From contig JBDREN010000019.1 of NCBI GenBank assembly GCA_043819795.1, forward strand, positions 1 through 32,349: a DNA stretch of 32,349 nt, written 5' to 3'. Source of the stretch: Elusimicrobiota bacterium (GTDB lineage: Bacteria; Elusimicrobiota; Elusimicrobia; UBA1565). The notes beneath the pieces were generated by a model. That model was not told where the DNA came from and searched no databases. It saw only the letters and a list, made by a program, of their open reading frames with translations. Positions 1-32,349 of the stretch are shown in pieces. Numbering within the stretch: position 1 is the stretch's first letter; the number at the start of each line of letters is the position of its first letter. The position numbers were made by a program, and so were the translations under genes.

Positions 1-58
1 ATACCACCGAGTCGTTGAGCCCGTCCCCGTTGGGGGTGATGAGGCGGTTGGACACGCC
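1..58 (-). other. Start of gliding motility-associated / T9SS type B-like C-terminal domain (CHU_C / TIGR04131-like)
   Basis: GVSNRLITPNGDGLNDSVV matches the hallmark N-x-[FI]-[TS]-P-N-G-D-G-x-N-D motif. Only the first ~19 residues are in the window. Confidence 0.75.
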
Positions 59-2929
59 CGCCGTATCGAAGGTGAACGCGCCCACGCGCTCGACCGCGCG
101 CAGCTGATAGCGGCCCAGGTACTGCGTCCGGAGCACGATGAGCTGGTTGGTCTCATCGAGCTTCCCATAGAGCTGGACCCACTTGCTGCCGTTGTACCAG
201 TACACGCTCAGGTTCTCTGGGACCGGAACGACGGCCGTGGGCCTGGAGGCCGCGCCCGCGCCCGAGGGCGCCACCAGCGTGCCCTGCCGCTGGTAGCGCA
301 ACCGCATGGTGGCCAGGGCCGCGAGCTTGAGGTTGGGGACCTCTTCCTTGCCGCCCCGCCGGGCCATGAAGGCGATGGACTTGAGCACCCGGCCGCCTAA
401 GTCCTCAGGGTGGCTGGAGGAGCCGATCTGGTAGGCCGTGTCCGGGCCGCCGCCGGCGCCGCCCAGCGCGTCCATGACCGTAGAGGGAAGCTCGATCGTG
501 CTCGTGCCGTCCGGGTCCGTGATGATGCCGGCGTCGGAGGCGTTGGACATGACGAGCGAGTCCGCCGAGATCTCGGTGAAGTTCACCGCTTTCAGGCGGT
601 AGAAGTACGCCCGGGACGTGTCGTTCTCCGCCCAGGTAATGGTGCCGGTCGACGGCGCGACGGAGGCGACGTGCGTCCAGGACGCGCCTGTGGCGGCCGT
701 GGCCCGGTACACGCGATACTCGGTGAGCTCGTCGAAGGTCGGAGCGTCCGGGTCGGCGAAGGCTTGGCCGTGGTCGTAGGCCCGCACCGGCAGCCAGGAC
801 AGGAATAGCTGGGACGGGGCCACGACGACGCTCAGCCCGAAGGGACGCCCGGGCGGCGCGGTCCGCACGAAGACCGAGGCCGGGCCCGCCTTGGGCAGCA
901 GGAAGTCGGGGGACATCTCCGCGCTCGCCCAGTAGTAGTAGGTCGTGCCGACGACCACGCCGGTGTCGACGTAGACGGCGTCGAACGTCGAAGCGGTGAG
1001 CGGCGGGTCGGACACGATCCCGGTGGAGCGGTAGATCCGGTAGCCGAGGAAGGAGCCTCCCTTGGCGGCGTCGTCGAAGTCGGTCCAGGCGAGCCTCACC
1101 CGCCTGAACTCGGTGATCCCGGTGAAATCCGTGACCATGAACTCGGGCGGGACGGTGACGGTGGTCCCGACGAATACGTAGTTCGGCTCCGTCTGCCAGT
1201 TGAGGCTGCCGACGCGGAAGTAATAGGTGGTCGCGCCCCTCAGGCCCAGCACGCTCAGCGTGCTGCGCGTCACGTCCGCGGTCGAGGAGACGCGGACCGC
1301 GCCGCTGAAGTCCGGGGCCGTGGAGGCCTCCACGCGGTAGCCCTCGGCGGAGGCGGACTGCGGCGCGCCCGGCAGCGCGGTCCAGTCGAGCGTGACGCTC
1401 GTGAAGAGGACCTCGAAGACCCGCGCCGCGGCCACCTGCCCGGCCAAGGTGGAGCTCGAGGGGCCGGCGGCCACGTTGAGCGCCGAGTTCCAGTTGCGCG
1501 CGCCGACCCGGAGGTGGTACGTGGTGTTGGCCTCGAGGTCCTCGACGGTGAGCGATCCTAGGCCGCCCGCGATCGTGGAGGATGAGTAGATCGTCCCCGT
1601 CCCGTCGAAGGCGGTGGAGGAGGCCTCCACCAGGTATCCCTCCGACGCCACCGCGTCCCAGGAGACGGCGATCGAGCTTGCATGAACGGCCGCCACGCGG
1701 GGGCCGCCGGGGAGCTCGGCCAGCGTTGACGTCGAGCCCATGGCCGCGTACGCGCTCGGGACGCCGTTGTGGTTGACCGCCCGCACGAAAAGGTAATACG
1801 TGGTGTCGGGCGCGAGACCGGTCAGGTCGGCCGAGGGGGCGGCGGACGGCCGTGTGGATATCGTCACGTTGCCGCCGAGCCCGGGGACCAGCGGCGTCCG
1901 CGTGGAGACGACGGCCTCGTAAAGGGTGACGGCCGGATTGCCGCCCGCGGTCCACTGTCCCGACACCGACGAAACGAACACGCCGGCGAATACGGGCGAG
2001 GCCTGCGCCGGGTCGGCGACCAAGGTGGCCGTGGAGGCCGGCGTGGCCGGGGCGTAGAAGGTCTCTCCCGCCCACACCGCCCCCGCGCGGAGGTAGTACG
2101 TCGTGTTGAGGGCCAGGGACTCGACCGTCAGCGTATTCAGGCCGCCGTTGGGCGTGGCGGAGGAGAGCACGCCGCCGGTGAAGTCCGAGGCGGTGGAGGC
2201 GTCGAGCACGTAGCCGCCGTCGGGGGCCACGGGCCCGCTCCAGGAGACCGTGATCGAGGAGAAGAACACGGCGTCCACCGTCGGGGCGGCGGGCTCGGGC
2301 GCGAAGGTGAAGGCGGAGCCCGCGGGCACGAAGCGCGGCAGGCCCGCCCAGTTAAGCGAGCCGACTCGGAGGTAATAGGTCACGTTCCCGGTCAGGCCCG
2401 CGATGGCCAGGGTGGACACGGCCGCGCTCGGGGTGGCCGAGGAGAATACCGTCCCCGAGAAGCCGGGCGTGGTGGAGGCCTCCAGTAGGTAGCCCTCGGC
2501 CGTGGCGGAGGGCGGGGACGCCGGGAGCGGCTGCCAGTTGACCGTCACGCTCGTCGTGAAGACCGAGTGGACCTGCGCCCCGGCGACCGGCTCGGCCAGA
2601 GTGGAGCTCGAGCCGGCCGCGGCGAAGTTGGGCGCCGAATTCCAGTTCAGGGCCCCCACCCGGACCTGATAGGTCGTGTTGGACTCGAGGCCCGCGACGC
2701 CCAAGGTCCCGAGCCCGCCGGAGGCCGTCGAGGAGAGGTATACCGTCCCGGTCCCGTCGAAGGCCTTCGACGAGGCCTCCACGACATAGCCCTGGGACGT
2801 CACGCTGTCCCAGGCCACGGTCATGGAGCTGTTGTGGACCTCCGGCAGGTTCGCGTTCCCCGGCGGTTGGGCCAGCGTCGAGGTGGATCCGAGCGCGAGG
2901 TAGCCGCTGGGCGCGCCGCTGCGATTGAC
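1..2929 (-). CDS. C-terminal continuation (~976 aa, 3'-partial) of the giant protein after the frameshift: FN3-like repeats, ZU5/GAIN-like domain, gliding-motility/T9SS-B-like CTD
   Basis: Manual translation from 2929 gives VNRSGAPSGYLALGSTSTLAQPPGNANLPEVHNSSMTVAW..., the exact continuation of the interrupted FN3 repeat. The same frame ends ...GVSNRLITPNGDGLNDSVV at position 2. It is absent from the ORF track, consistent with no stop codon inside the window. Confidence 0.92.
60..547 (-). other. Pre-CTD beta-sandwich domain, ZU5/GAIN-like
   Basis: DPDGTSTIELP...MRLRY...ENLSVYWYNGSKWVQLYGKLDETNQLIVLRTQYLGRYQL has the L-x-[IV]-Y-W...W..L...D.....[IV]..T..[LF]..Y pattern of such domains. Recognised by eye. 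Confidence 0.45.
548..1150 (-). repeat. Two divergent, more canonical FN3 domains
   Basis: VRLAW...GYRIYRS...YVDTGVVVGTTYYYW and LFLSW...EYRVYRA...YFYRLKAVN. Confidence 0.75.
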
Positions 2930-5900
2930 TGCGCGCGAACAGGTAGTAGGTCGTGTCGGGCGTCAGGCCGGCGAGGTCCGCCGACAGGCTCCCGAGCGGC
3001 CGGGTCGAAACCGTCACGTTGCCGCTGTTCGCGGCGACGAGCGGGGTCTCGGTGGACACGGTCGCCTCGTAGAGCGTGCCCGCCGGGTTGCCGCCGGCCG
3101 TCCATCGCACGGTGAGCGACGAGGCGGACACCGCCGTGAAGGCCGCGGCGGGCGCCGCGGGTTCGGCCGCGAGCGTCGCGGTCGACGCCGGCGTGGTGCG
3201 CAGGTAGGCGGTCGTGGCCGGCCAGAGCGCTCCCACCCGCAGATAGTAGGTCGTGTTCACCTCCAGGGCCTCGACCGTCAGGGCGGTCGTCCCGCCGTCC
3301 GCGGTGATCGACGACACGATGGTCCCGGTGAAGTCGCTCGCCGTGGAGGCCTCCAGGACGTAGCCGTCCGAGGAGTCCACGCTCGTCCAGGACGCCGTGA
3401 TCGAGGACAGGAACACGGAGTCGACGACCGGGGCGGCGGGAGGCGGGGGCGCAGTGACGGTGGAGCCCGCGTCGACGAAGAGGGGGCGGCCGGCCCAGTT
3501 GAGGGAGCCGACGCGGAAATAGTACGTCGCGCTGCCGGTCAGGCCCGAGACGGTCAGCGTGGATCCGGTCACGACCGGCGTGGCCGAGGAGAGGACCGTC
3601 CCCGAGAAGTCGGGCGACGTGGAGGCCTCGACGCGGTATCCCTCGGCCGACGCGGCCTGCGGCGCGGTCGGCAGCGGCTGCCAGTTGAGCGTGACGCTCG
3701 CGTTGAAGACCGCGAAGACCTGTGCGCCGGAGACCGGCTCGCTCAGAGTGGAGCTCGATCCCGCCGACGCATAGTTGGGCGCCGAGTTCCAGTTCAGGGC
3801 GCCGACCCGGACGTGGTACGTGGTGTTGGCCTCCAGGGCGTCGAGCGTCAGGGACCCGAGCCCGGCGTTGGCCGTGGCCGAGGAGTAGAGGGTCCCGGAC
3901 CCGTCGAAATCGGTCGAGGATGCCTCGACCAGATAACCGCGTGACGACACAGTGTCCCAGGCCACGGTCATCGTGCTGCGCTGCGCCTCCGTGACGCCGG
4001 CGTTGGCCGGGCGCTGGGTCAGCGTCGAGGTCGAGCCGAGAGCCGCGTATCCGCTCGGGATGGCGTCATGGTTGACCGCCCTCACGAAGAGGTAATAGGT
4101 GGTGTCGGGCGTCAAGCCGGGGAATCCCACGGACGGAGTCCCGGAAGGCCGGGTCGACACCGCGACGTCGCCGGAGTGCGTCCCGACCAGCGGGGCGCCG
4201 GTGGACGCCACCGCCTCGTAGAGCGTGCCGGCCGGGTTGCCCGCCGCGTCCCACTGCGCGGTGACCGAAGACACGAATATCTCGAGGAAGGTCGCGGCGG
4301 CCGCGGCCGGGTCGCCGGCCAAGGTCGCGGTCGAGGACGGCGTCGCGGGCTCGTAGGAGGGCGTCCCGGACCAGACCGCGCCCGCTCGGAGATAGTAGGT
4401 CGTGTTGAGGGCCAGGCTCTCCACGCTCAGGGTGGTCAAGGACGCGCTCGGGGTGGCCGAGGACAGGACCGTCCCGCTGAAGTCCGCGGCCGTGGACGCG
4501 TCGAGGACGTAGCCGCCGTCGGGATCCGCGCCGGCGCCGACGAAGGAGACCGTGATCGAGGAGTAGTGCACGGCGTCCACGGCGGGGGTCCCGGGCGCCG
4601 GGGCCCCCGTGAAGGCCGAGCCGGCCGCCGCGTAGTTGGGCAGGCCGGCCCAGTTGAGGCTTCCCACGCGGTAGTAGTAGCTCGCGCCGCCGGTCAGGCC
4701 CGTGACGGTCAGGGTACTCGGCTCGACGGCGGCGGTCGACGACGAGAGGACGGCGCCCGAGAAGTCGGGCGCGGTGGAGGCCTCGAGGACGTAGCCCTCG
4801 GCCGTGGCGGACTGCGGGGCCGCCGGGAGGGGCAGCCAGTTGACGGTCGCGCTGGTCGTGAAGACCGCGTGGACCCGCGCGCCGGCCGCCGCGTCGGCCA
4901 GGGTGGAGCTCGAGCCGCCCGAGGCGTAGTTCGGCTCCCCGCTCCAGTTCAGCGCCGCGACGCGGATGGCGTATGTGGTGTTGGCCTCGAGGCCTTCGAC
5001 CGTCAGTCCGCCGAGCCCGCCGTCGGCCGTCGACGAGGAATAGACGGCGCCCGCCCCGTCGAAATCCGTCGAGGACGCCTCGACCCGATAGCCTTGCGAC
5101 GTCACGGCGTCCCAGGATACGGTCATCGAGCTCGGGAGGACCGCCGCGACGTTCGCGTTCGGCGGACTCTGGGCCAGGGTGGAGCTGGAGCCGAGGGTCA
5201 GGTACGCGCTTGGGATGCCGTTGTGGTTGACGGCCCTTACGCGCAGCGTGTAGGTGGTGTCGGACGTCAGGCTTTCGACCGTCAGGGAGCCGGTCCAGCC
5301 GTCGGCGGTGGAAGAGGAGTGGACCGTTCCGGTCCCGTCGAAGCCCGTGGAGGAAGCCTGCACCAGATAGCCCGGAGCCCCCACGGTGTCCCAGGCCGCG
5401 GTGATCGAGCTCGCGTACACGGCCGCGACGCCGCCGCTGACGGGCGGCAGGGCCAGCGTCGAGGTGGAGCCGAGGGCGAGGTAGGCGCTCGGCACCCCGT
5501 TGCGGTTGACGGCCGTCACGCGCAGCTCATAGGTGGTGTCCTCCTGCAGGGACTCCACGAAGGCCGAAGTCTGGAGCGTCTCCGAGGAGGCCATCGTGGT
5601 GCTGGCCGCGAAGCCCGCCGATGAGGCCTGGAGCAGATAGCGGGTCCCCGCCGGATTGCCGCCGTCCGCCCACTGCGCCGAGATCGAGGACACGAAGACC
5701 TCCAGGACTCCCGGAGGGGGCGCTCCCGGCTCGTTGGCGAGGGTGGCCGTCGACGCGGGCGTGGTCGGCGTGTAGGACGTCACCCCGGCCCACACCGCGC
5801 CGGCGCGCAGATAGTAGGTCGTGTTGAGCGCCAAGCCCTCGACCGTCAGGCTGTTGAGCGCGCCGTTCGGGGTGGCAGACGAATAGAGCGTCCCGGTGAA

Positions 5901-8900: not shown

Positions 8901-9434
8901 GTTATAGTTGACGCCCCGGACGAACAGGTAATAGGTCGTGTCCGGGGTCAGGCCGGTGAAGTCCGCCGACGGGGGTCCGGAGGGCCGGGTGGACACCGTC
9001 ACGTTGCCCGTATGCGCGATCACCAGCGGCGTCTCCGTGGACACGACCGCCTCGTAGAGGGTGCCGGCCGGGTTGCCGTTGGCTTCCCAGGCGCCGGTGA
9101 AGGACTGGTCCGCGACCGCGCTGAACGTGGCGGGGGCGCTCAGCGGCAGCGCGGCGAGCGTCGAGGTGGCGGCCGGGACGCTCAGGCCGTAGCTCGTCGT
9201 GGTCCGCCAGAGGGCGCCCATGCGCAGGTAGTAGGTGGTGTTCGGGGCCAGGCCGTAGGACGTCAGGGTGGACACTCCGAGCTCCGCGGTGGCCGATGAG
9301 AAGAGCACTCCGGTGAAGTCCGCGGCCGTGGACGCGTCCACGAAGTAGCCGCCGGCCGCGACCGTGGAATAGGAGACGCTGAGGCTGTGGGTGGAGACGT
9401 CCGTGACCGTACGGCTCGCGGGCGGCAGCTCCTT
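1151..9434 (-). repeat. Array of 29 FN3-like domains (~92-100 aa): 7 x four-domain super-repeat (~1.14-1.15 kb) plus one extra
   Basis: Recurrent S.T..W...GY..[ED]AS...F.G...SS.T......L.V.GL..[ND]TTY..R.G. Super-repeats start at about 9434, 8285, 7151, 6017, 4604, 3449 and 2302. Confidence 0.88.
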
Positions 9435-27400: not shown

Positions 27401-30400
27401 CGAAGTAGAGCTCGGCCGTGGCGTTCGGCCGGTCGGCCCCGGTATCGTCGTAGCCGAGCCGGTCCTCAATGAGGATGTTGCCGCCGGAGTCCTTGAGGTC
27501 GATGCCGTAGGAGGAGTTGGCGTAGATGTTGTTGGCTATGAAGGTGTTGTGGTCGGAGGAGCTGTCCAGGAAGGCGCCCTGGAGCGTGTTGGAATACACG
27601 GCGTTGGAAGCCAAGGTATTGCTTGACGACTGGGAGAGATATAGTCCGCGGGAGCCGTTGGAGTACGCGCTGTTGGCGCTGAGGGTGTTGTCGTCCGAGG
27701 ACGAGTCCAGATGGACTCCGTTCGCGTTCGAGTATAAACGGTTGTCCGAGAGCGTGTTGTTGGAGGATCCGGTGAGGAAGACTCCGTCGCCCTGGTTGGA
27801 GAAGGACCTGTTCGACGCGAGGGTGTTGCCCGATGAGCCCGAGAGGTAGAAGCCGTATGACTCGTTGGCCTGGACGCAGTTCTCTGTGTACGTATTGCCG
27901 GACGAGTTCGAGAGAAAGACGCCGTGCGCGGAGCTCTTGTGGATCAGGTTGCGCTCGAACGCGTTGGCGCCGGTCGCGGAGGTATGGATCCCCCTGTATC
28001 CATGCCTGAGCGTCGAGCTCGAGATCGATCCCTTCACGCCGGTCCCGTCGAACGTGACGCCGTACTTGCCGGAGGCGTTCGCGCCCAGGTAGGCGAGTTC
28101 GCCGTATGCTAGGTCGAAGCTCGTGGTGTTCTGGGCCAGGTTCCTGATGTAGGCGCTGTTGGCCCCCGCCCCGTCCACGATCGCGCCGGAGGAGCGCACC
28201 AGCACGTTGCGCGTGAGATTGGCCACGATGATGGGGCTGGTGTCGGTCAGGACGCGGGCGCTGGCGAGCGTGCCGCTCCAGGCCACGGTGAGCGTGGCGC
28301 CGCCGCTGATGTCCGTGATGATCTTCTCTTCGGTGGCGCCCGTGCCGCTGCCGCCGGTCGGGCCGATGGTGATGGCGTCGCCCACAGCCCAGGCCGTGGC
28401 GCTGGAGGCGGCGATGTCCAGCTGAGTCGCGCTCGCCCCGATGCCGGCCAGCGCGAATCCGTAGGGCGACTTGGTCGCTCCGCGGACCGTGAAGTCGCCG
28501 CCGTCCTGGACGATGAGGCCGTATTGTCCGGCCACCGTGCCCGAGGCTAGGATGAGGTGCGCCGTCGTGCCGGAGGGTATGGGGTCGGCCTCGGTCCCCA
28601 TGTCCAAGTGGCCGCCCGCCTCCACCGTGATGTCTCCGCCGACCAACGTGAGGCTCGACTGCGCGACGCGGCTGAACGTGAGCGTTCCCGAGACGGTCGT
28701 CGTGGAGGCCGTCGCCGTGGTGGTGCCCACGGTGACCGTGTGGCCGGCCGTGATCGTGACCGCGTTGCAGCCGGTGGGGACGAAACCCGAGTCCCATAGC
28801 AAAGCCGCCGACCAGTCGCCGCTCTGGACGCTGGCGGGCGCGAAGTCGCAGATATCGTCCGTCCAGCTCACCTTGCCGTTGGGATCATCGTCGTAGACCC
28901 CGCCCCACCGGTCTCCCAGAAGGGCGCTCGTGCCCGTGAAGGTCCAGTCCAGCCCCGCGTCGCCGCCCTCCACCCGGACATTGTGGGCCGAGTCGAATCC
29001 CTGAGAGCTGCGGCTCAGGCCGAAGCTCACCCTAGGGAAGATGGCCGTGGAAGTGATGTCCCGGGCCGTGATGTAGGCGTTGGTGCCCGAGGCGAAGCCC
29101 AGGTAGTCGAAGCTCGACGTCGATATCCATACCCCGTCCGAGCCCGAGAGCTGTATGCCTCCGGGGTCCATGTTCGTCATCGAGGAGTGTCCGGCGGTGA
29201 ACGCCCCCGAGTCCACGAAGGTGTAATAGGTCCCGCCGGCGAGCATGTTCGTCACCGTATAGGCTGTCTCCATGCCCTGGAGCACGACGCCTCCGTCGGC
29301 CTCCACGCGAAGCCTGGAGCGGCCGTCCCGGAAAGAGGACGCGGACGGTCCGAAAAGGAGCTGTTTCTGTAGGTTCTGCACTGGCGAGGCGGCTAGCAAG
29401 GCGAAATCGAGCCTGTCGCCGTCTTGCGGCGAGCCGCCCTGGCTCAAGGCCAGGCCGAACTGCGTGAAGTCGGTAGGGCCGGCGCAGGTGCCCGGGGAGA
29501 TGGCGCCCAGGGCGCCCGATGAGGAGCCGCGCACCTGCCAGGAGCCGGACACGCGCTCGATGGTGATCAGTTGGCTCAGGGCGTCGGCGTCGCTCGTGGA
29601 GCAGACCTCGGCCGAATGGCCGGAGCCGCGCATGAGCTTGGGCGTCGTGGCCGTGGAGGCGTAGAGCCGGGTGGCGTAGTCGAGCGTCAGCGTGCTCGCC
29701 GAGACCAGGTAGTCGCCCCAGAGCCTCAGCGTGCCCGTGTCGAGGTCCTGGTCGTAGGACAGGAGATAGTTGCCCTCGCGGTTGAAGCCCGCCGTGGAGA
29801 TGCCCACTGCCGGATTGACCCGGACGCCCTTGAGGACGAGGTCCTCGCTCTCGGCGGTGTCGAAGTAGATTTCGGAGGTGGCGTTGGCGGCGGTCGCGCC
29901 CGCCTGGTCGTAGCCGAAGCCTCCTCCCGCGACCGTGGTGGTGGACGCCCCGTCAACGTAGAGGCCGTAGCGGGAGTTGGAGTAGAAGCGGTTGGAGACC
30001 AGAGTGCTGTTCGAGGTGCCGCTCGACCAGAAGCCATCGAAAGAGTTCGAGTGGACGTCGTTCGAGGCGAACGCGTTGCCGTCGGAGTCGAAGGCGGCGA
30101 TGCCGGAGCCGGAGTTGTCGTGGACGCCGTTGGCGACGAAGCTGTTGTCATCGGAGGATGCGCTGAGCACGATGCCGTAGGCGGTGTTGGAGTGGGCCTC
30201 GTTCCCGTCCAGCGTGTTGTTCGATGAGCCGCCGAGCCCGATGCCGGAGTCGTTGTCGTAGGCCGCGTTTCCGGCCACCGTGTTCTTGGAGCTCCCGTTC
30301 AGCCAGATGCCCCTGGAAGCGTTCAGATAGACGGTGTTGGAGGTCAGCGTGACCTCCGAGGAGGAGCCGATCTCGATGCCGTCGTCCGCGTTCAGGTAGG

Positions 30401-32349
30401 CTGTGTTGGAGCTCAAGGTCACGTCCGAGGAGGAGTTGAGCTCGATCCCGTCGGCCATGCTCGAGTGGGAGAGGTTGGCTGTCAAAGTGTTGAAGGGGGA
30501 GTTCTCGATGTACAAGCCGCTGTCAGTATTGTTGTGTGTCTCATTGCCGGTCAAGGTGTTGCTGGAGGAGGCGCTCATCAGATTGATGCCCCGGTCGTCG
30601 TTGCCGTAGGTCTCGTTGTCGGCCAATCCGTTGTCGGAAGAGCCGGACATATAGATGCCTTGGAAGTGATTGGCGTAGCTATGGTTCGACTCCACGACGT
30701 TCGCGGAAGAGGTGTTGAGTTCTATGCCGTCGTCCTTGTTGGCATGCGTGCTGTTGGCGCTCAGCGTGCTGTGGGACACGTCGTGCAGGTGGATGCCGTC
30801 ATACTCGCTGAGATAGACGTTGTTCTCGGTCAACGTGATGTTGTCGGAGCCGTCGATGTAGACGCCGTAGGAGCCGGCGCGGATGGCGCAGCTCGAGATG
30901 GAGCCCCGGACTTCGGCGCCGTCGAAGGTGATGCCGTACTTGGAGGCGGCGTTGGCGCCCAGGTAGGCGAACTCGCCGTGGGCGAGGCTGAAGCTGGTGG
31001 CGTTGCGGGCGAGGTTGCGGATGTAGGCCGAATCGCCGGTGGTGGCGGTCCCCGACGAGCGGACGAGCACGTTGCGGGTCAGGTTGGCCACGACGACGGG
31101 GGTCGTGGCGGTCAACGTGCGCGCAACGGATATCCCGCCGGTCCAGTCGATGGTGAGCGTGCCGCCGCCGCTGATGCCCGTGATGACCTTGCTCTCGACA
31201 GCGTTCGTATCGGTGCCGGTCGTGGGGCCGATGGTGAAGAGGTCGCCCTCGGCCCAGGCCGTGGCGCTGGAGGCGGCGATGGTCAACTGGATCCCGCTCG
31301 CCGAGATGCCGGCTAAAGCGAAGCCGTAGGGTGTTTTGGTGGCTCCGCGGACCGTGAAGTCGGCTCCGTCCTGCACGATCAGGCCGTACTGCCCGGCCGT
31401 CTGGCCGTAGGCCAGCACCAGATGCGCGGTCGTGCCCGTGGGGATGGGATCGGCCTCGGTGCCCATGTCCAGGTGCCCGCCCGCCTCCACCGTGAGGTCG
31501 CCCTGGACCACAGTGAAGCTCGACTGCCCGACGCGGCTGAACTTGAGCGTCCCCGAGACGGTGGTAGTCGAGGCCGTGGCCGCGGTGTCGTCCAACGTCA
31601 CCGTATGTCCGGCCGCGACCGTGACCTCGTTGCAGGCGGCGGGCGCGAAGCCCAGGTTCCAGGTGGAGGCCGAGGACCAGTCGCCGGTCTGCGTGCTCGT
31701 CAGCGCCTTGCATCCCCAGATCACCTTGTGGTTCGGGTCGTTGTCGTGGTCCTCGCCCCAAAGATCGCCGAGAGCGGCGTTCACACCGCGGAACGCCCAA
31801 TCCAGCCCCGAGTCGGTTCCCGTCACGCGCACGTTGTAGGCCGAGTCGAAGCCGTGCGAGGAGCGGTTCAGGCCGAAGGTCACGTCGTAAAAGGTGGCCG
31901 CAGAGGTCAGGTCCCGGGCGGTGATGTAAGCATTGGTGCCCGAGGCGAAGCCCAGGTAGTCGAACGTGGACGTCGAGATGGAGATGCCGGCCGAGCCCGA
32001 GAACTGGAAGCCGCCCGGGTCCATGTTCGTCATTGATGAATAGCCGGCGGTGAAGGCCCCAGAGTCCACGAAGGTGTAATAGGTCCCGCCCGAAAGCATG
32101 TCCACGAGCGTGTGTCTGCTGGCGATCCCCTGAAGCACGACGCCGGCGTCCGTGCCCACGATGAGCTTGGAGCGTCCGTCCCTGAAAGACGGTTCGGACG
32201 GCCCGAAAAGCAGCTGCTTCTGCCGGTTCTGCACCGGCGAGGCGGCGATGAGCGCGAAATCGAGCGCGTCGCCCTCAACCGCCGAGCCGCCCTGGATCAA
32301 GGCCAGGCCGAACTGCGTGAAGTCGGTGGGACCGGCGCAGGTGCCCGGG
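2352..32349 (-). CDS. Giant multidomain surface protein, main frame, 5'-partial (G8/beta-helix modules, FG-GAP propellers, FN3-like repeats); true coding in this frame ends at ~2931 (frameshift)
   Basis: 9982-aa ORF with GC-ending codon bias and a coherent repeat architecture. The frame stays open upstream of 32300 (32348: PGTCAGPTDFTQFGLALIQGG, matching the internal repeat PGTCAGPTDFTQFGLALSQGG), so the real start lies beyond the window. The last ~193 codons (2930-2352) are out-of-frame Arg/Gly-rich sequence. Confidence 0.95.
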   Translation of the reverse strand, partial: PGTCAGPTDFTQFGLALIQGGSAVEGDALDFALIAASPVQNRQKQLLFGPSEPSFRDGRSKLIVGTDAGVVLQGIASRHTLVDMLSGGTYYTFVDSGAFTAGYSSMTNMDPGGFQFSGSAGISISTSTFDYLGFASGTNAYITARDLTSAATFYDVTFGLNRSSHGFDSAYNVRVTGTDSGLDWAFRGVNAALGDLWGEDHDNDPNHKVIWGCKALTSTQTGDWSSASTWNLGFAPAACNEVTVAAGHTVTLDDTAATASTTTVSGTLKFSRVGQSSFTVVQGDLTVEAGGHLDMGTEADPIPTGTTAHLVLAYGQTAGQYGLIVQDGADFTVRGATKTPYGFALAGISASGIQLTIAASSATAWAEGDLFTIGPTTGTDTNAVESKVITGISGGGTLTIDWTGGISVARTLTATTPVVVANLTRNVLVRSSGTATTGDSAYIRNLARNATSFSLAHGEFAYLGANAASKYGITFDGAEVRGSISSCAIRAGSYGVYIDGSDNITLTENNVYLSEYDGIHLHDVSHSTLSANSTHANKDDGIELNTSSANVVESNHSYANHFQGIYMSGSSDNGLADNETYGNDDRGINLMSASSSNTLTGNETHNNTDSGLYIENSPFNTLTANLSHSSMADGIELNSSSDVTLSSNTAYLNADDGIEIGSSSEVTLTSNTVYLNASRGIWLNGSSKNTVAGNAAYDNDSGIGLGGSSNNTLDGNEAHSNTAYGIVLSASSDDNSFVANGVHDNSGSGIAAFDSDGNAFASNDVHSNSFDGFWSSGTSNSTLVSNRFYSNSRYGLYVDGASTTTVAGGGFGYDQAGATAANATSEIYFDTAESEDLVLKGVRVNPAVGISTAGFNREGNYLLSYDQDLDTGTLRLWGDYLVSASTLTLDYATRLYASTATTPKLMRGSGHSAEVCSTSDADALSQLITIERVSGSWQVRGSSSGALGAISPGTCAGPTDFTQFGLALSQGGSPQDGDRLDFALLAASPVQNLQKQLLFGPSASSFRDGRSRLRVEADGGVVLQGMETAYTVTNMLAGGTYYTFVDSGAFTAGHSSMTNMDPGGIQLSGSDGVWISTSSFDYLGFASGTNAYITARDITSTAIFPRVSFGLSRSSQGFDSAHNVRVEGGDAGLDWTFTGTSALLGDRWGGVYDDDPNGKVSWTDDICDFAPASVQSGDWSAALLWDSGFVPTGCNAVTITAGHTVTVGTTTATASTTTVSGTLTFSRVAQSSLTLVGGDITVEAGGHLDMGTEADPIPSGTTAHLILASGTVAGQYGLIVQDGGDFTVRGATKSPYGFALAGIGASATQLDIAASSATAWAVGDAITIGPTGGSGTGATEEKIITDISGGATLTVAWSGTLASARVLTDTSPIIVANLTRNVLVRSSGAIVDGAGANSAYIRNLAQNTTSFDLAYGELAYLGANASGKYGVTFDGTGVKGSISSSTLRHGYRGIHTSATGANAFERNLIHKSSAHGVFLSNSSGNTYTENCVQANESYGFYLSGSSGNTLASNRSFSNQGDGVFLTGSSNNTLSDNRLYSNANGVHLDSSSDDNTLSANSAYSNGSRGLYLSQSSSNTLASNAVYSNTLQGAFLDSSSDHNTFIANNIYANSSYGIDLKDSGGNILIEDRLGYDDTGADRPNATAELYFDPSGAEDLTIKGARINPAAGLSISGFNKEGNYLVSYNQDLDTGTVRVWGDYLLYGSTLALDHSTRLYASTATTPRLMRGTGHSVSIDSTGDANALSQLITFEFRSGEWHVDGSSSGVDMISPFTGSPTDLAIPSSNAQVTVDFTDGGSPQEGDRVDFVLVAASQDQNVQKQLLFGPSAASYRDGRSKLTVAADAGVVLKGVDGAHTLVDMLAGSTYYAFVDSGAFTAEYSSMTNMDPGGIQLSGTAGVSITTSTFDYLGFASGTNAYITARDLASVGTFYDVTFGLSRSSHGFDSAHNVRVEQPDSSLQWLFWGRLGPIWGEERDDDPNNKVLWECKTLTSVQSGAWSSASTWDHGFAPAACNGAVVAAGHTVTVAVTTATASTTTVQGVLAFSRVSHSSLTLVGGDLTVEAGGHLDMGTEADPIPSGTTAHLILASGTVAGQYGLIVQDGGDFTVRGATKTPASVAIGDLTTSDNQLTLSAAPTAWEVGDVITIGPTQGDGAGTTEERTITGIAGAVVTVNLNFSDDHYTTSTIRAGNLTRNVLVRSSGTDTGGDTAYIRNLAQNATSFSLTYGEFAHLGANASGRYGIAFDGAGVQGSISSSTVRQGYRGIYLSGASGNTLARNLVYDNASHGVHLDGASGNDLTSNDSYANSAGGFYLASSGSSGNVLSSNKAFSNAAEGIALLNAPDNTLESNGSYCNSDAGIDLNGSSRNTLTSNESYLNLTEGVSLTDSSSNTLAGNSLYYNSSHGAYLSGSSSNTLVSNNVYANSGYGVYPDSSMANLLAGDGLGYDASGAGLPDATAEIYFNTSNSESLTLEGVRVNPAAGLSMDGFNREGNCLLSYNHHLDTGTVRVWGDCTLSGETLTLAYANRLYASTATAPRLMRGTGHSAEVCSTSDAEALGQVITIERAAGAWRVLGSSSGVLGAITPGTCASPTDFTQFELALSQGGSPEDGDRLDFALLAASEDQNVQKQLLFGPSVSPFHDGRSKLTIAPDAGIVLQGVDGAHTLVDMLAGSTYYTFVDSGAFTAQYSSMTNMDPGGMQLSGSGGVSLSDSTFDYLGFASGTNAYITARSLTSSVAMSSVTFGLSRSSHGFDSAYNVRVEGTDSGLGWAFNTAGGALWGEDYDDDANNKVVWQTCGPTASAQTGDWSAGTTWDLGLKPQACNPVTVASGHTVTVDDTDATAAATTVRGTLKFSRVSHSSLTLVGGDLTVEAGGHLDMGTEAAPIPSGTTAHLVLAYGSSAGQYGLIVEDGGDFTVRGSTKSPYGLALSSISAGVTSLTIPASSAAGWQAGDAITIGPTSGAGPDATEERIVTGISGTDPLTVSWSDALLSDHILTDTSPIVVANLTRNALVRSSGTDTAANSSYIQNLARNATSFSLAYGEFAYLGALASSKYGITFDGAGVRGSISSSTIREGYTGVYVTEGAADLARNLVYKNALDGIYIRTSSGNTLDANNSYANWNYGIRFSGASDSILTGNRSYSNTNRSIYLSGNSNNNIFVSNASYCNSTHGMYLVSSSSSALESNDVYSNAGYGVYISNSSDDTLALNNVYANSSFGIYLDSFSDSALISNNSFNNSLGIYVRNASGDSLVGGSLGYTPSGESSPNATGEFQLDTGTSSDLTLKQVRVNPANGVSPDGFNREGNHVISYDQSSDTGTIRLWGDYAVSGSTLTVDYAAQLHASAASLPILVRGTGHSAAVDQTYDADALSQLITIEYRGGQWHVDGSSSGADMDSFPGNVTDQNIPASSSQFRLDFTAGGSPAEGDRLDFVLIAASGDQNVQKRLLFGPGASSFREGRSKLTAAADAGIVLKGVDGTLTVVDMLAASTYYTFVDSGAFTAEYSSMTNMDPGGLQLSGSAGVSIATTSFDYMGFASAANAYITARDLTSALTLHGVGFGLSRSSHGFASADNVRVEGSDANLQWSFVGRHGPLWGEKHDDDPNDKVTWECRPLTSAQSGPWSSASTWDLDFVPTDCTSVTVAPAHTVTVDITTATASTTTVSGTLAFSRVAHSSLTIAESDLTIEPGGHLDMGTEADPIPAGTTAHLVLASGTVAGQYGLIVQDGGNFTVRGSTKSPYGFALGSISAGGTSLTVSIDGATGWTVGDTITIGPTSGNGASSTEERIITGISGGGTLTIDWSGGLTNARVLTGTSPIVVANLTRNVLVRSSGTDTSGDTAYIRNLTANATSFSLAYGEFAHLGTMAASKYGITFDGAGVRGSVSSCTVRQGYGGIVVMGASSNTFTHNLAYENALDGIYAENSSNNTFAYNNLVSNSLYGIRLNVASNNTVAGNYSYSNAGSNCGVCLNESNHNIIDSNSSYSNAGIGFDIDNSSHNTLSSNDSHSNLGYGYYIHGSAASTNTFVSNNAYANLSYGFYLADWAIGNTLISNDSFSNTDYGIIILDAFDTVVVGGSFGYDASGTPAPNSSAEILINAADTGELTLKDVRVNPATGVSADGFNKEGNYVISYAQDSDTGTIRLWGDYAISGSTLTLDYATRLYASTAAAPRLMRGSGHSAGVVLSYDAEAVSQLITIEHRAGLWHVDGSVSGADMESFPGSVTDQDIPAANSQFRLDFTDGGSAAEGDRVDFALIAASQDQSAQKRLLFGPGASSFREGRSQLTVAADGGIVLRGVDGAHTLVDMLSGSTYYTFVDSGAFTADYSSMTNMDPRGLQLSGSAGVFISTTVFDYMGLASGTNAYITARDLSSQITLDQVGFKLSRSSHGFDSAYNVRVEGDDSNLQWLFVGRVGTLWGEDFDEEPANKVGWGCRSLVSAQDGAWSSGSTWELGFVPTDCNAVTVAAGDTVTVDDTAATASTMTVQGTLKFSRVSHSSLTMVEGDLTVEAGGHLDLGTEADPIPTGIDAHLVLALGRTAGQYGLIIQDGGDFTVRGATKTPTAAPSSDISAGQTTAILAETIASLGWETGDLATFAPTQGSGPSATEKKTISGTLANFLTVDSNFSAVHYATGAALVSDLTRNVLVRSSGTDTAGDTAYIRNLARNATSFSLSYGEFEYLGANASGKYGITFDGAAVEGSISSSTMREGYIGIYVNGADANTFSHNLLYNNASHGVFLDNAANGNAVSYNHSFVNAGYGVFLQSSSDNNFLTHNKVYSNSNWSVYLNSCDDNTFASNDLFSNASFGVYPSGSSDGNLFVANRVHSNADRGIHLYNSNDNVFVSNDVYSNSGYGLSTRGSLDTVFIEGSLGYDPAGPSAPNASAEIFFDASDSESLTVKAARVNPAVGISTEGFNRGGDCLLTYNQDLDTGTVRVWGDCALSGQTLTLDHSAQIYASTTTVPKLMRGSGHSASLDQTYDAQALSQLITIEYRGGQWHVDGSSSGVDMDGFPGSVAGRDIPPGSPQFRLDFTPGGSPEEGDRLDFALLAASRDASVQKRLLFGPAAASFRGGRSKLALASDAGVVLRGIKGTHTLVDMMAGSTYYTFVDSGAFTAEYSSMTNMDPGGMQLTGSGGVAISSSVFDYLGFASGTNAYITARDLTSSATFYSVTFGLSRSSHGFDSAHNVRVETGDSNLEWRFRGENGPLWGEDHDDELGGGVSVIWSDRPPDGPAVAAVHLSSITVTWGQVFSDGYSVDASTAPDFSGAILSSATFVVALTTLTTQGLAPNTTYYIRAGALWVDVTTYTDAAPASTSTLADLVTSDQFFGIFVTSVTVNWEPLPTAAQEGSSSTAEGYLVEASTAPDFTGALFSSATPNVELSTLTVSGLEPYVPYHFRIGSLNWNGAPHFTVLGATTPSVFKVVDLLGSGGDSQGLAWGDYDGDGDLDLAVANRSGADELIARNNGDGTFSTFTLTGTAGDSAGVAWADYDGDGDLDLAVANLSGQDEYIARNDGGGSFTRFDLTGIGGDSYGVAWGDYDNDGDLDLAVANKSGQDETLARNNGDGTFSTFTLTGTGGNSYGVAWGDYDNDGDLDLAVANYNGDEDAIARNEGGGTFSTFTLTGTDVDSRGIAWGDYDNDGDLDLAAAVSNGDEYIARNDGGGTFSTFTLAGSGGNSFAIAWGDYDNDGDLDLAVAKYGGADEYVARNDGGGTFTRFTLQSTGRNSVALSWGDYDGDGDLDLAVANYSGQDTYIARNDAVIAHNSPSAPAAGFAASFSEYSEFSSSGVLRVQWDDGSDVENSTASLRYFVRVGTTVAGSSTTIKIPPLYGTDGLSGGGSFLYSTKVSPSQRGLEVILQKESTAYWAVVTEDGESLRSPESAEQTTSLVAPAAVTDLYAALSADGLGASTMSVTLTWTAPGDAVYAGAITGGEYDIRYSTFTPMTSTAAFANASYRVAIATSVSPGDAQVHTLTGLDYSATHYFAITTKDGLGVRSPLSNATTAESYIEVLAGMSGDSMGAAWGDFDNDGDLDLVAANASGQDEYIAENNGDGTFSTFTLTGTAGDSAAIAWGDFDNDGDLDLAVANAGTEDEYVARNDGAGVFTKLVLNGSGGNSSGIAWGDYDNDGDLDLAVANDGGQDTFIARNDGDGSFSTFTLTGSGGNSAGIAWGDYDNDGDLDLAVANDGGQDEYIAQNNGDGTFSTFTLTGTGGSSYGLAWGDYDDDGDLDLAVANHGGEDEYIARNDGGGTFTKVTLTGTGGDSLGIVWGDYDNDGDLDLAVANGSGQDGYVARNDGSGTFSTFTLINAGGESVGISWGDYDDDGDLDLAVANFAEDQYLARNDIVIAHNSPSAPGSGFSASFSEYSEFSSSGVLSVQWDDGSDVENSTGSLRYFVRLGTTVAGSSTTFKLPARYSTDGYSGGSFLYSTKISSSQRGMKLIFQKETTAYWAVLTEDGESLRSPESAEQTTEVAAPDAVTDLHATITEGGLGFSTMSVTLTWTAPGDSGYLGAITGGAFEIRYSTFTPMTSAGAFVNASYAVVLATSVSPGDGQVHTLTGLDYTTTHYFAITTKDGLGVRSALSNAATAQSYIRVLAGTVGNSMGAAWGDYDADGDLDPAVANRNGQDEYIAHNNGDGTFSTFTLAGMGGDSYGIAWGDFDNDGDLDLAVSNTNGEDGYVARNDGGGAFTRISLSGSGGNSAGIAWGDYDNDGDPDLAVANRGTEDEFIARNNGDGTFSTFTLTGTGGDSMGVAWGDYDNDGDLDLAVANQAGENEYIARNDGSGTFTRIVLSGTGGDSVGLAWGDYDNDGDLDLAVANAGTEDEYVARNDGGGTFTRVVLSGTGGYSQGVSWGDYDNDGDLDLAVANYGDDGYLARNNGDGAFSKLTLTGTGGNSVGISWGDYDDDGDLDLAVANTNSDDEYLARNDADLAHNDPAAPSSGFSDSFSEYSEFSSSGVLTLGWGDGSDVENSTASLRYLVRVGTTVAGSSTTLKLPARHGHDGLSGGSFLYSTKISSSQRGMKIVLQKETTAYWAVATEDGELRRSPESAEQTTEVVAPAGVTDLRVSAIVSTGLGASSMTVTLTWTAPGDSGRAGAITAGAFDIRYSTFTPMTSTGAFANAPVSVVIATSVSPGDPQAYTFEFFDAAATYYFGITTTDGMGVRSSLSNPATAQSYIQALFGSSGDAYDVAWADYDNDGDLDFAVANTNSREDYIARNDGGGFFSTFTVAGTDVFSSGLAWGDYDNDGDPDLAVAEAGGQDNYLLRNDGGAFTKIALTGFGGNSKAVAWGDYDNDGDLDLAVANALGEDEYLARNEGGGTFTKITLTGTGGNSKDLAWADYDNDGDLDLAVANGDGNQDEYIARNNGDGTFTKTTSLDGTGDNSTALAWGDYDNDGDLDLAVANTNNQDEYVARNDGGGTFTKVAIAGTGGFSFDIACADHDSDGDLDLVVANNFELDYIAYNNGDGTFAKLALRETGGDSFAAAWGDLDGDGDPDLAVGESGADDFIVRNDTGTVNAAPSSPSLSASDLGLEYGTDTSTLTVKWDAGDYDGNGATTTVYYALAMATQPISVSADGRRITGPSSFVLPWANGTPLLGHYLRPAYRVWPGDASPKHGVPLRLDLLGNALKSDATYYFRLQAVDLGLARSSWSVEISSYVYKELPPASRTVTDVSTHSLSVSYSTVAAGGYFVDASTAADFTGVLFSSATAELGVSTLTSYGLAPNTTYYLRMGALWRTTTSYGLSVPAATSTLAALPLSAPATFSAVADQSFTGAWEANGNPAGTLYEAVVSTETPLVIAHTGNVTVSTRPSGPPSADFTGLTPDTTYYLFVRGVNYNAIPTAYGAFGSTSTLASPPTGVNIAGAHLSTMTVAWSTVTSQGYLVEASSTDFDGAGVVYASFTANGALGALRVESLEANTTYYLRVGAVNWNSVPDYAAAGSSSTLAEPVSGAQVYSVFTDSVTLNWRPLPPVPQSVSAESYLVQASTASDFSGGIFSSSTAGVEPSTLTVTGLTGGVTYYFRVGSINWESVANYVSAGSTLTYNPAPVAPAVDSAFLSSITVSWTPVYPEEGYVLDASTAPDFSGTVLSSATPSAAAASLTVEGLAVNTTYHLRAGAVRGGATSYAFTAPPSTATLADVPGPAAPAILGVSSFSLAAQWADGGNPAGTLYALEASSTGFDGSGALVSSDTLAFSATVRLLLSDTTYYLRVKAVNRNGVPTAPLALGSTSTLASPPGSVGVAVVHPSSMTVTWNAVTAQGYLVEASSTDFDGTGMVYSSSTANGGLGALTVQSLEENTTYQVRVGAVNWNGVPNYAAGGSSSTLAEEVIGPQVLEVFTTSATVNWQPRPAAPQEATAEGYLLEASTTSGFTGGILSSSTAGVEPSTLTVTGLTGGTTFYFRAGSLNWAGAPNFISAGSTYTHTPAPDDPVLDAVFGSSIAASWSGFDPDGGYALEASTAPDFTGAILSSTTANGSLTALTVEGLAFNTTYYLRAGAVWSGSTFYALAVPASTSTLAREPGAAAPAFPAVFVSSMSAQWTDGGNPAGTRYVLEASSAGFAADTALVSSETLDTTAFVETLLEDTTYALRVKAVNHNGLESAYLAVGSTSTLAARPSGVSIAAAHHSSMTAAWTTVTSQGYLVEASSTDFDGAGTVYSSATVDSGIGTLSLQGLEANTTYYVRVGALNWNGAPNFAFGGSSSTLADPVGGAQVFAVFTTSAAVNWRPLPPAPQSASAEGYLLQACAIPDFSSGILSSSTAGVEPSTLTVTGLSGGVTYYFRVGSLNWPSEPHFVSVGSSLAGAPTPAGPAVAAAFMSSVTASWGGVDPDGGYVLDASTAADFTGTLYSSATPNGALNSLTVEGLALNTTYYLRAGAVWAGVTSYTPTTPASTATLANEPGAPPPGVLEVFVSSISAQWADGGNPAGTRYLLQASSAGFAASTTMASSETLQTSAFVESLQEDTTYELRVTAVNRNGVPSAYLALGSTSTLALPPVSGGVAAVYASSITAAWDTVGAPGYLVQASSTGFDGTGTVHSSSTADGWTGSLTVESLTSDTTYTLRVRAVNHNGIPSAYLTLGSSSTLAQSPPNANVAAVLPSSMTVSWDAVTSQGYRVEASSTDFDGAGAVYSSSTADGGLGGLTVEGLEANTTYAIRVAALNWSGEPNYASGGSSSTLADAAAGARVHAVFTTSATVNWLPLPAAPQSATAEGYVLEASTAPDFSGAVLSSSTAAVEPSTLTVTGLTGGASYYYRVGSLNWAGLPNYAAAGSAFTGAPAPGTPAVDAVHYSSITVSFVGAGADPDGGYVLDASTAADFSGTVLSSATPSASLTTLSVESLALNTTYYLRAGAVWSGTPSYEPATPSSTATLAGDPAAAAATFLEIFVSSVTAQWDAAGNPAGTLYEAVASTGAPLVGTHSGDVAVSTRPSGTPSVGFPGLTPDTTYYLFVRAVNHDAIPSGYAALGSTSTLTQRPANAGVTEAQRSTMTVAWDTVSSRGYLVEASSTDFDGSGTLYSSATANAGLGSLTLDALEANTTYHVRVGALNWNSAPNYASAGSSSTLSEPVSGAQVFAVFNASVTLNWQPLPTAPQAASAEGYRVEASTSPDFSGTVLSSATPVVTGSTLTVSGLTGSATYYFRVGSLNWAGRPLFVDAGSTVTAPPPPAAPVVDSVFLSSITASWTSVDSSDGYVLEASTASDFTGTIVSSITADGGTTALTVEALEVNTTYYLRVGALWPATTAYLRTTPASTATLAAEPAAPAAAFTAVSASSLTVRWTAGGNPAGTLYEATVSTETPLVAANSGNVTVSTRPLGSLSADLAGLTPDTTYYLFARSQSQRRAQRLPRARIHLDAGPTAGEREPAGGPQQLHDRGLGQRDVPGLCRGGLVEGLRRDRDGIPLLDGLRRARDLGRRGPRVQHDLSGPGGGPELEFGAQLRRGRLELHSGRAGRRGAGPLGLHDERDGQLAAAPGVPALRHGRGLPTGGLHHARLLGDGILLGHPERGRVHPGHRGPDRERDLLPPSRLA
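2929..2939 (-). other. Apparent 2-nt deletion frameshift in a short GC dinucleotide run
   Basis: The minus strand reads TTC GCG CGC A GTC AAT. Paralogous repeats read TTC GTG CGG GCG GTC AAC (~1780), TTC GTG AGG GCG GTC AAC (~4080) and TTC GTC CGG GGC GTC AAC (~8915), i.e. F-V-R-A/G-V-N. This copy is two nucleotides short. Confidence 0.9.
9435..9875 (-). other. FN3-like domain with long insertion following the last propeller
   Basis: NAAPSSP...LTVKWDAG...VYYAL...LKSDATYYFRLQAVDLGLARSSWSVE. Confidence 0.6.
9876..10889 (-). repeat. FG-GAP/VCBS 7-repeat beta-propeller #4
   Basis: Seven ~49-aa repeats with [WC][GA]D[YHL]D.DGD[LP]D; the most divergent of the four blocks. Confidence 0.88.
11628..12641 (-). 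repeat. FG-GAP/VCBS 7-repeat beta-propeller #3
   Basis: Seven repeats of GG[DN]S.G.AWGDYDNDGDLDLAVAN....DEY.ARN.G.GTF. Confidence 0.9.
13377..14390 (-). repeat. FG-GAP/VCBS 7-repeat beta-propeller #2
   Basis: Seven repeats with the same consensus and a ~147-nt period. Confidence 0.9.
15129..16145 (-). repeat. FG-GAP/VCBS 7-repeat beta-propeller #1
   Basis: Seven repeats with the same consensus and DxDxDG Ca2+-binding-type loops. Confidence 0.9.
16146..16727 (-). repeat. Two FN3-like domains (types a and d of the C-terminal array)
   Basis: SSITVTW...GYSVDASTAPDF...GLAPNTTYYIRAGALW and SVTVNWEPLP...AEGYLVEAST...YHFRIGSLNW. Confidence 0.82.
16728..32349 (-). repeat. Tandem large modules: G8-like domain + right-handed parallel beta-helix (PbH1/NosD-like) + beta-rich cap; six complete (starts 31712, 28850, 26396, 23978, 21545, 19094) and one partial
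   Basis: Each unit begins C...S.Q.G.WS....W..G..P..C..V.VA.GHTVT....T.V.GTL.FSRV...L.VE.GGHLD[ML]GTEA.PIP (G8-like). It continues W..GD..TIGPT...NLTRNVLVRSSG, then ~23-aa G[IVLF].L..SS.N....N..Y.N coils, then FVDSGAFTA.YSSMTNMDP.G...WGE..DD. Unit lengths are about 954, 818, 806, 811, 817 and 789 aa. Confidence 0.9.

Follow-up and report, generated by a model that had tools for sequence, protein, structure and literature searches.

What protein is encoded by a contig of an Elusimicrobiota bacterium that is filled from end to end by one reading frame, how would such a protein reach and stay at the cell surface, and what could it do there? The window, i.e., the whole stretch of 32,349 nucleotides analysed here, is the entire contig C19 of a 4.99-Mb genome (241 contigs, 66.8% GC, 90.3% complete). 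An earlier note on this DNA had read it as one giant gene for a modular surface filament held at its C-terminus. Elusimicrobiota are described as rich in huge proteins without assigned function or architecture (PMC11573180, bioRxiv 2023.11.21.568195), and T9SS export has been described as a trait of Bacteroidota alone (PMC12618676). We found no published account of the present architecture, or of type-9-like export in Elusimicrobiota, in the open-access literature.

Reading Frame and Assembly

On the minus strand, frame A is stop-free from 32348 to 2355 (9,998 codons, 5' open) and frame B from 2962 to 2 (987 codons, 3' open); none of the other four frames stays open for more than 1,266 codons. 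Third-position GC (GC3) is high in frame A (0.87-0.97) up to a 2-nt frameshift (2929..2932, minus strand) and in frame B (0.90-0.98) past it; at the frameshift, GC is missing from a short GC run at ~2930, inside an FN3 repeat. The stop-free frames and the GC3 switch bear out the claim of the earlier note that, apart from a single 2-nt slip, one frame of more than 32 kb spans the window. When the slip was read through with X, the window encoded 10,783 aa, in agreement with the at least ~10,780 aa given in that note.

Three public runs were compared over window positions 1-12000, and only one of them, X1, has a contig across the slip. This contig (342 nt, window 2657-2996, depth 3.6) carries GC inserted behind 2930, which restores the frame; run X2 gave a diverged relative only, and run X3 next to nothing. 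The intact form exists according to X1, in this one low-depth contig only, and X1 may be the source sample itself; the absence of a deletion is not thereby demonstrated. Since an independently assembled public run fills the slip, we think it probable that the contig was misassembled at this place. A genuine slip, through phase variation or decay, would give a 9,998-aa product without the sorting tail, i.e., a gene switched off, and the location of the deletion in a dinucleotide run speaks for it. However, the run is merely 3-4 units long, the two bases are present in the X1 assembly, no other stop or shift occurs in 32 kb, and GC3 stays at 0.9 or above past the slip, so that we regard a genuine slip as improbable.

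A chimeric repeat assembly, which the earlier note had named as a possible objection, was also looked for. Judged from the sequence, repeat chimerism is unlikely because the longest exact repeat inside the window (60 nt) is far shorter than the contig overlaps in this assembly (141 nt), and the six whole G8 modules described below are just 51-66% identical to one another. The view that the giant length is an artefact, assembled from repeats of several shorter genes, can point to the fact that both G8-module genes of the genome break within their repeats and that the X1 contigs each cover at most ~580 nt of the window. Yet the X1 pieces match scattered places of the window with 0-2 differences, and relatives have single ORFs of 6,000-7,800 aa with all three parts of the present protein; an artefact of this kind is extremely improbable.

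Gene Ends and a Second Giant Gene

Extension of the contig, as the earlier note had proposed, succeeded at the 3' end of the gene only. There, the window overlaps contig C66 by exactly 141 nt, and the stop lies 70 codons beyond the window. Including the 70 codons on C66 and with X at the slip, the giant ORF (2..32348, minus strand, 5' open) encodes a protein of 10,853 aa or more, with a mass of about 1.12 MDa. Its net charge is about -640, and no membrane segment was found (no 19-residue window above 1.6 on the Kyte-Doolittle scale). At the 5' end, no contig of the genome overlaps the window, and no X1 contig runs past its end or bridges it to another contig.

Six contigs of the genome hold a G8 module. 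Three of these (C76, C89 and C141; L006, L004 and L005), which have 141-mers in common and match one another exactly over 1,538 nt, make up a second giant gene with G8 modules that has both a start and an end. Its start is on C76, C89 is a looped two-module contig, and the end, on C141, has 14 or more FN3 domains, a His-Leu-Ser pre-tail domain and the other tail type, with a PorV-family barrel adjoining. After the second gene is set apart, one start (C40), one internal piece (C110) and one end (the window) are left. C110 terminates in the same 141-mer as C40, and its module is 73% identical to module 1 of the window. Exact matches of at least 30 nt to the G8 zone of the window amount to 474 nt for C110, 326 nt for C40 and 35-104 nt for each contig of the second gene. 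Because one start, one internal piece and one end remain, and because of the shared exact matches, C40 is probably the missing N-terminus, a link made by elimination only. If C40 and C110 are joined to the window, the chain would measure 2,828 + 905 + 10,853 = about 14,600 aa or more. One X1 contig is a 96% copy of the linker of module 1 and matches nothing assembled, which fits a further, unassembled module just upstream of the window.

C40 carries, in this order, a signal-like N-terminus (recognised by eye), a subtilase with an intact Asp/His/Ser triad, FN3, seven FG-GAP blades and two modules, and is 3' open. A fusion of subtilase and G8 module was found in no other genome among the listed module matches of at least 1,200 aa, and the closest S8 relatives lie mostly in frames of 1,345-1,580 aa. 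On C40, the subtilase fusion lies at L001:1-8550; with 66% identity to the S8 domain of a 1,406-aa protein encoded on C71, its own S8 domain looks like a recent in-genome duplication.

Very long frames are common in this genome: 21 high-GC3 frames of at least 3,000 aa take up ~7% of it, including frames of 12,270 aa (C218) and 10,012 aa (C15), and a 6,644-aa protein on C56 has another four FG-GAP blocks. In one relative, a frame stays open over 20,647 codons and matches a beta-helix weakly (G007:C17, near 88026).

Domain Architecture

The Pfam families G8, Beta_helix, NosD, FG-GAP, FG-GAP_3 and fn3 were over cut-off in a scan that covered about 6,200 aa, the remainder being repeats of the same modules. 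With the CHU_C tail described below, they confirm the three zones ending in a TPNGDG CTD that the earlier note had drawn. All features lie on the minus strand and are given here from the N-terminal side. The tail of a seventh G8/beta-helix module (aa 1-217; 31698..32348), cut by the contig end, is followed by six whole modules, namely module 1 (28833..31697; 955 aa, with a central helix ~140 aa longer than in the others), module 2 (26385..28832), module 3 (23967..26384; 806 aa, the TMEM2-like module that was folded), module 4 (21537..23966), module 5 (19089..21536) and module 6 (16716..19088). Two FN3 domains (16152..16715) precede four FG-GAP/VCBS blocks with seven blades each, i.e., 28 blades: block 1 (15129..16136), an FN3-like spacer of ~250 aa (14367-15128), block 2 (13374..14366), a spacer (12612-13373), block 3 (11619..12611), a spacer (10872-11618) and block 4 (9864..10871); the second and third spacers are likewise FN3-like and ~250 aa long. 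A stalk of 29 FN3 domains (1150..9431) comes next. Two divergent FN3-like domains (540..1150), whose likeness was judged partly by eye, open a ~480-aa C-terminal core that continues with a pre-CTD domain (70..540) and the start of a type-B T9SS sorting domain (2..46; TPNGDG at 37-20), which is completed on C66.

Fold and Conservation of the G8/Beta-Helix Module

Whole modules measure 790-955 aa each. AlphaFold with a 74-sequence alignment gave a model of module 3 that is nearly all beta (pLDDT 96.9, pTM 0.93); a first run with 9 sequences (pLDDT 49.9), usable for the central helix only, was superseded by it. In a Foldseek search with this model, the TMEM2 ectodomain ranked first (E 8e-15). The structural Z-scores from VIA were 31.4 for AlgG (315 residues, 2.5 A), 29.4 for AlgE4, 29.2 for NosD and 28.7 for TMEM2; the top scores, which are tied within about 2 of TMEM2, belong to enzymes and a substrate-binding protein, and the TMEM2 alignment is the longest by far (485 residues, 2.7 A, model residues 3-618 on 8c6i). 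None of the listed VIA matches covers model residues beyond about 720. The module profile also finds TMEM2 by sequence (E 7e-13), and G8 (PF10162) is over cut-off, with the CEMIP beta-helix family PF24606 below it (E 0.013, 15.8 bits against 27.3). The equation of G8 plus PbH1 with a TMEM2/CEMIP-type layout in the earlier note is borne out both by fold and by profile.

No Pfam family matched the two inserts of about 80 and 90 aa or the last ~350-370 aa of each module. This C-terminal part, with 304 matches among 1.84 billion representatives, defines a narrow family, and the second half of the module met beta-helix clusters in the ESM Atlas, as sub-0.9 leads only. An internal duplication of the module halves was considered and is unsupported (hhalign probability 2.8%). 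On the basis of the model, the module is predicted to fold into a beta-helix like that of TMEM2, capped by G8 and interrupted by inserted sandwiches. Most G8 domains begin with a Cys pair that links neighbouring modules (window 16716-31706), and two modules have a second Cys pair, in the second insert; these pairs are likely periplasmic disulfides.

Identity among the six window modules is 40% in the central helix, 49% in the first insert and 57-77% in G8, flanking helix and tail, and over all 74 sequences the central helix is 27% identical. Between modules, it ranges in length from about 170 to 330 aa, and the number of rungs differs as well. At positions 271-445, no column of Asp, Glu, His, Lys or Arg reaches 50%, and none of three sequence sets shows a conserved charged or His column in the central helix; the conserved residues of the module cluster at the domain joints. 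In AlgG and AlgE, the rung with the Asp-Pro-His motif is catalytic. In the module profile, the rung that aligns with it lacks this motif. For TMEM2 itself, G8 is described as part of one continuous beta-helix, with no assignable active site and no hyaluronidase activity seen (PMC10206443).

FG-GAP Blocks and FN3 Stalk

Each of the 28 blades has a DxDxDG-type loop, and the likeness between blades is about 70% whether they belong to one block or to different blocks. The best solved relative of the blocks is CRTAC1 (E 3.5e-6); no integrin was found among their solved-sequence matches, and the RGD motif was searched for and not found. Of the integrin-alpha-like heads put forward in the earlier note, the seven blades per block stand, and the reading as integrin heads does not (no RGD, no transmembrane segment, CRTAC1 as best relative). 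By their sequence, the blocks are best classed as VCBS/FG-GAP-type bacterial propellers, not integrin heads. VCBS-type propellers typically bind carbohydrate (PMC9218822), and the propeller of the Vibrio adhesin Bap1 binds exopolysaccharide (bioRxiv 2026.08.03.742583).

The FN3 stalk is built of a four-domain super-repeat, with a mean BLAST score of 103 at lag 4 vs 44-51 at lags 1-3. It has one extra domain near 5250 and, at 25% Ser+Thr, is a candidate for glycosylation.

C-Terminal Tail, Barrel and Export

The tail matches CHU_C (PF13585) at 29.1 bits, over the cut-off of 27, and TIGR04131 below cut-off (E 1.8e-5, 24.8 against 35); in the ESM Atlas, it met an Elusimicrobiota fn3/CHU_C cluster, as a sub-0.9 lead only. 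The stop at C66:353 overlaps (ATGA) the start of a PorP/SprF-like barrel-TPR gene. Homologues of this barrel are named PorP/SprF in 10 of the 120 listed cases and carry PF11751, and 17 of the 18 with an organism name, among the matches listed, are from Elusimicrobia. TIGR03519 matches the barrel below cut-off (E 3.4e-5), and NF033709 is likewise below it for the tail-barrel pair. Three CHU_C tails are over cut-off in the genome (C66, C158, C172), and each precedes a barrel of the same subfamily, 40-44% identical to the C66 barrel. In addition, the genome has 32 PorV-family matches.

ESMFold2 placed the tail on the barrel with a score of 0.92 in three runs, which likeness to solved CTD-barrel complexes may have helped; the best of 3 controls scored 0.01. 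The runs agreed in at least 94% of contacts, with a partner pLDDT of 90. Among 157 solved complexes, 116 attain the mark used for a complex, as against 2 among 215 mismatched pairs. The tail is predicted from these models to dock on the barrel encoded by the next gene. The C-terminal anchor of the earlier note is real and can now be specified: it is a T9SS tail of type B, paired with a PorP/SprF-like barrel of its own. The anchor of type-B cargos is a cognate PorP/SprF barrel that is usually encoded directly downstream, and the cargos of Bacteroidota, e.g., SprB, need this barrel and stay bound to it (PMC9143113, PMC12618676).

As for other parts of the export machinery, a SprA-like frame of 1,889 codons on C134 has three collinear TIGR04189 matches (E about 1e-15, below cut-off). 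SprA_N (PF14349) had no match in the genome, with a control that was silent too, and GldM had none either, with a control silent in all 14 genomes.

The pre-CTD domain aligns weakly with a His-Phe-Ser (HFS, MAIN-like) domain (E 5e-4, above all 200 shuffles) that was found before the other tail type in 25 proteins. Such MAIN/GAIN-type domains self-cleave via His-x-Ser/Thr (bioRxiv 2026.05.12.724683). At this position, the pre-CTD domain has Tyr-Leu-Gly (window 121-113), and His-x-Ser/Thr was found in none of the 9 type-B tails, out of 54 examined, that reach it. Because Tyr-Leu-Gly replaces the motif, the domain is predicted not to self-cleave.

Five relatives have a small ORF, consisting of a signal-like start and a bare type-B tail, directly before the orthologous barrel (L042:11932-12321, L043:9282-9671, L045:10346-10786, L046:582-1052 and L032:14162-14464). 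It is absent in this genome, and could be a plug or decoy for the barrel.

Relatives and the Conserved Base

The module query matched 16 of 40 related genomes, 11 of them strongly (10 of the 16 in the family) and 5 via the generic helix only. Of 200 genomes from the phylum, a profile of the second half of the module matched 14, which belong to 9 families; it matched none of the 58 and 63 genomes in the two most sampled families. Where the listed module matches name an organism, 8 of 11 are Elusimicrobiota; relatives of the tail that bear a name belong to this phylum as well. Among the 150 listed matches (those of at least 1,200 aa), seven from other genomes have a module, a seven-blade block and FN3 together (P0001, P0003, P0005, P0008, P0012, P0020 and P0040), and the same three parts occur in ORFs on G001:C33 (6,006 aa) and G010:C119 (6,776 aa). 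The combination occurs in other genomes too, and all the relatives that share it are uncharacterised. Among the matches listed, the window protein is the longest with all three parts; single-module proteins of 1,200-1,700 aa number 26 of the 150 by manual count.

The ~480-aa C-terminal core is common to short cargos of relatives. The cargos with the closest cores measure 640 aa (G001), 736 aa (G013) and 733 aa (G007, on another contig), and that of G016 has at least 4,397 aa, with a module and 32 FN3 and without FG-GAP. The barrel is 57-59% identical in 5 of the 16 family genomes. These comparisons suggest that a conserved base carries an exchangeable passenger, with orthologous loci holding cargos from 640 to more than 10,850 aa.

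Kinase and FliF/FliG-Like Gene Behind the Barrel

The barrel is followed by a HAMP kinase and then by a FliF/FliG-like gene (C220 in this genome), and this order is kept in all four relatives whose contig reaches that far (G001, G007, G011 and G013). Besides the HAMP kinase and the FliF/FliG-like gene, C220 (L007:89-5659) holds a coiled-coil HATPase without a Pfam HisKA match; two response regulators come next, on the opposite strand. FliG_C was matched five times in the genome, and in three cases (C218, C56 and C220) the match lies behind a giant gene or its barrel. MotA adjoins three of the five, and no MotA match was found on C220. No flagellin was found in the genome, the control being positive in 4 of 14 genomes.

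Discussion

We put at about 60% the probability that the product is a docked SprB-like giant adhesin with type-9-like export and multivalent polysaccharide or glycan binding. Specifically, the protein would leave the cytoplasm through Sec by an N-terminal signal lying outside the window and would then pass through the SprA-like protein of C134. The type-B tail is predicted to stay docked on the barrel from the next gene, and no release would follow, as the pre-tail domain is without a His-x-Ser self-cleavage motif. Held out by the FN3 array, the propellers and the beta-helix modules would stand at a distance of roughly 0.2-0.3 micrometre from the cell, going by the usual sizes of such domains. 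There, the variable rungs of the central helix and the calcium-loop propellers may bind polysaccharides or glycans many times, without cutting them. Less surely, if C40 is the distal end, a subtilase would sit at the tip of a chain of the length given above.

The closest known counterpart is SprB-SprF of Flavobacterium johnsoniae, which shares the very large repetitive cargo and the CHU_C/type-B tail (PMC9143113, PMC12618676) as well as a barrel gene directly downstream, the predicted tail-barrel complex and a SprA-like gene in the genome. In contrast to SprB-SprF, the host here is an Elusimicrobiota and not a Bacteroidota, the barrel carries a fused TPR region, GldM was searched for without a match (with a silent control), the cargo consists of G8/beta-helix modules, FG-GAP blocks and FN3, and a kinase and a FliF/FliG-like gene follow. 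We describe the locus as one that would work like SprB-SprF, outside the Bacteroidota. The modules resemble TMEM2, CEMIP and fibrocystin (PDB 8c6i; PMC10206443) in that G8 starts a continuous right-handed beta-helix with an early inserted domain. Unlike these proteins, they are bacterial, stand in at least seven tandem copies per chain and have no membrane helix; no lectin-like GG domain was detected by Pfam on the module, and ~350 C-terminal residues per module are without a Pfam family. The PbH1 beta-helix core is also that of AlgG, AlgE4, NosD and phage tailspike depolymerases (Z 27-31 over about 310-340 residues), whereas the catalytic rung of AlgG and AlgE4 is absent and the central rungs are hypervariable.

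The propellers share blades with DxDxDG-type calcium loops with CRTAC1, integrin alpha and Vibrio Bap1/RbmC, and, by sequence, seven blades per block with integrin alpha; they differ from known VCBS/FG-GAP propellers in that the loop is kept in every blade, the blades are so much alike and four blocks stand in series, and from integrin alpha in that there is no leg, membrane segment or partner here. Giant proteins of a neighbouring phylum, the Omnitrophota, are likewise very long, modular and at the surface, some have N-terminal S8 peptidases, and adhesion has been proposed for them (bioRxiv 10.1101/2023.11.21.568195). As that source describes them, they have many membrane helices and SecA-like domains, with type II secretion genes adjoining, none of which was seen here.

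The filament might instead be an array of enzymes, in which the modules are polysaccharide lyases, hydrolases or epimerases that, with the tip subtilase, digest matrix or prey envelope. The module has alginate epimerases, lyases and phage depolymerases as structural neighbours, and it occurs singly in many secreted proteins of 1,200-1,700 aa, a format common for secreted enzymes; the subtilase triad on C40 is intact, and the giants of Omnitrophota have been proposed to digest prey walls (bioRxiv 2023.11.21.568195). On the other hand, a common beta-helix fold proves no function, the Asp-Pro-His motif is missing where it would be expected from the alignment, the central helix with its varying number of rungs offers no conserved charged or His column, and the conserved residues gather at domain joints. 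An adhesin is likelier than an enzyme because no conserved catalytic site was found, and the adhesin role suggested in the earlier note fits this absence of conserved catalytic residues; we consider the enzymatic reading unlikely.

Compatible with the docked adhesin is a further reading, in which the protein serves in motility or tension sensing and a flagellum-free FliF/FliG rotor with MotAB stators moves or loads it, taking the part that the GldLM motor plays for SprB. The conserved order behind the barrel, the position of three of the five FliG_C matches behind a giant gene or its barrel, and the lack of a flagellin match in the genome argue for it. Against it, the stators sit at other loci than C220, the same rotor gene follows cargos of just 640-736 aa, the FliF/FliG-like protein may be a signalling protein tied to the kinases, and in a genome that is 90% complete, flagellar genes could be missed. 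We also know of no link across the periplasm. A motor-driven adhesin is doubtful on this balance; if the FliF/FliG-like protein does act on the adhesin, this would be an undescribed motor-adhesin coupling. Equally speculative, and quite unlikely as a whole, is a wider picture of a stripped-down type-9 export in Elusimicrobiota. In this picture, an FN3 pair, a dead self-cleavage domain, a type-B tail and a private barrel would form a conserved base for a freely exchanged passenger of 640 to ~15,000 residues. In the present case, the passenger would be a 1.5-MDa protease-tipped filament of TMEM2-like modules, moved or tensioned by a flagellum-derived FliF/FliG rotor and not by the Bacteroidota motor, and the outcome would be a new surface motility or prey capture.

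For the docked adhesin that we prefer, the locus offers a concrete export route and an anchor for one Elusimicrobiota giant. It also shows a mode of growth, with modules stacked on a conserved base and a 15-fold range of length at one locus. The ~800-aa module is, by prediction, a well-folded bacterial relative of the G8 beta-helix of TMEM2, CEMIP and fibrocystin, whose biochemical activity is disputed, and its single-module bacterial versions are expressible and usable for tests of glycan binding and cleavage.
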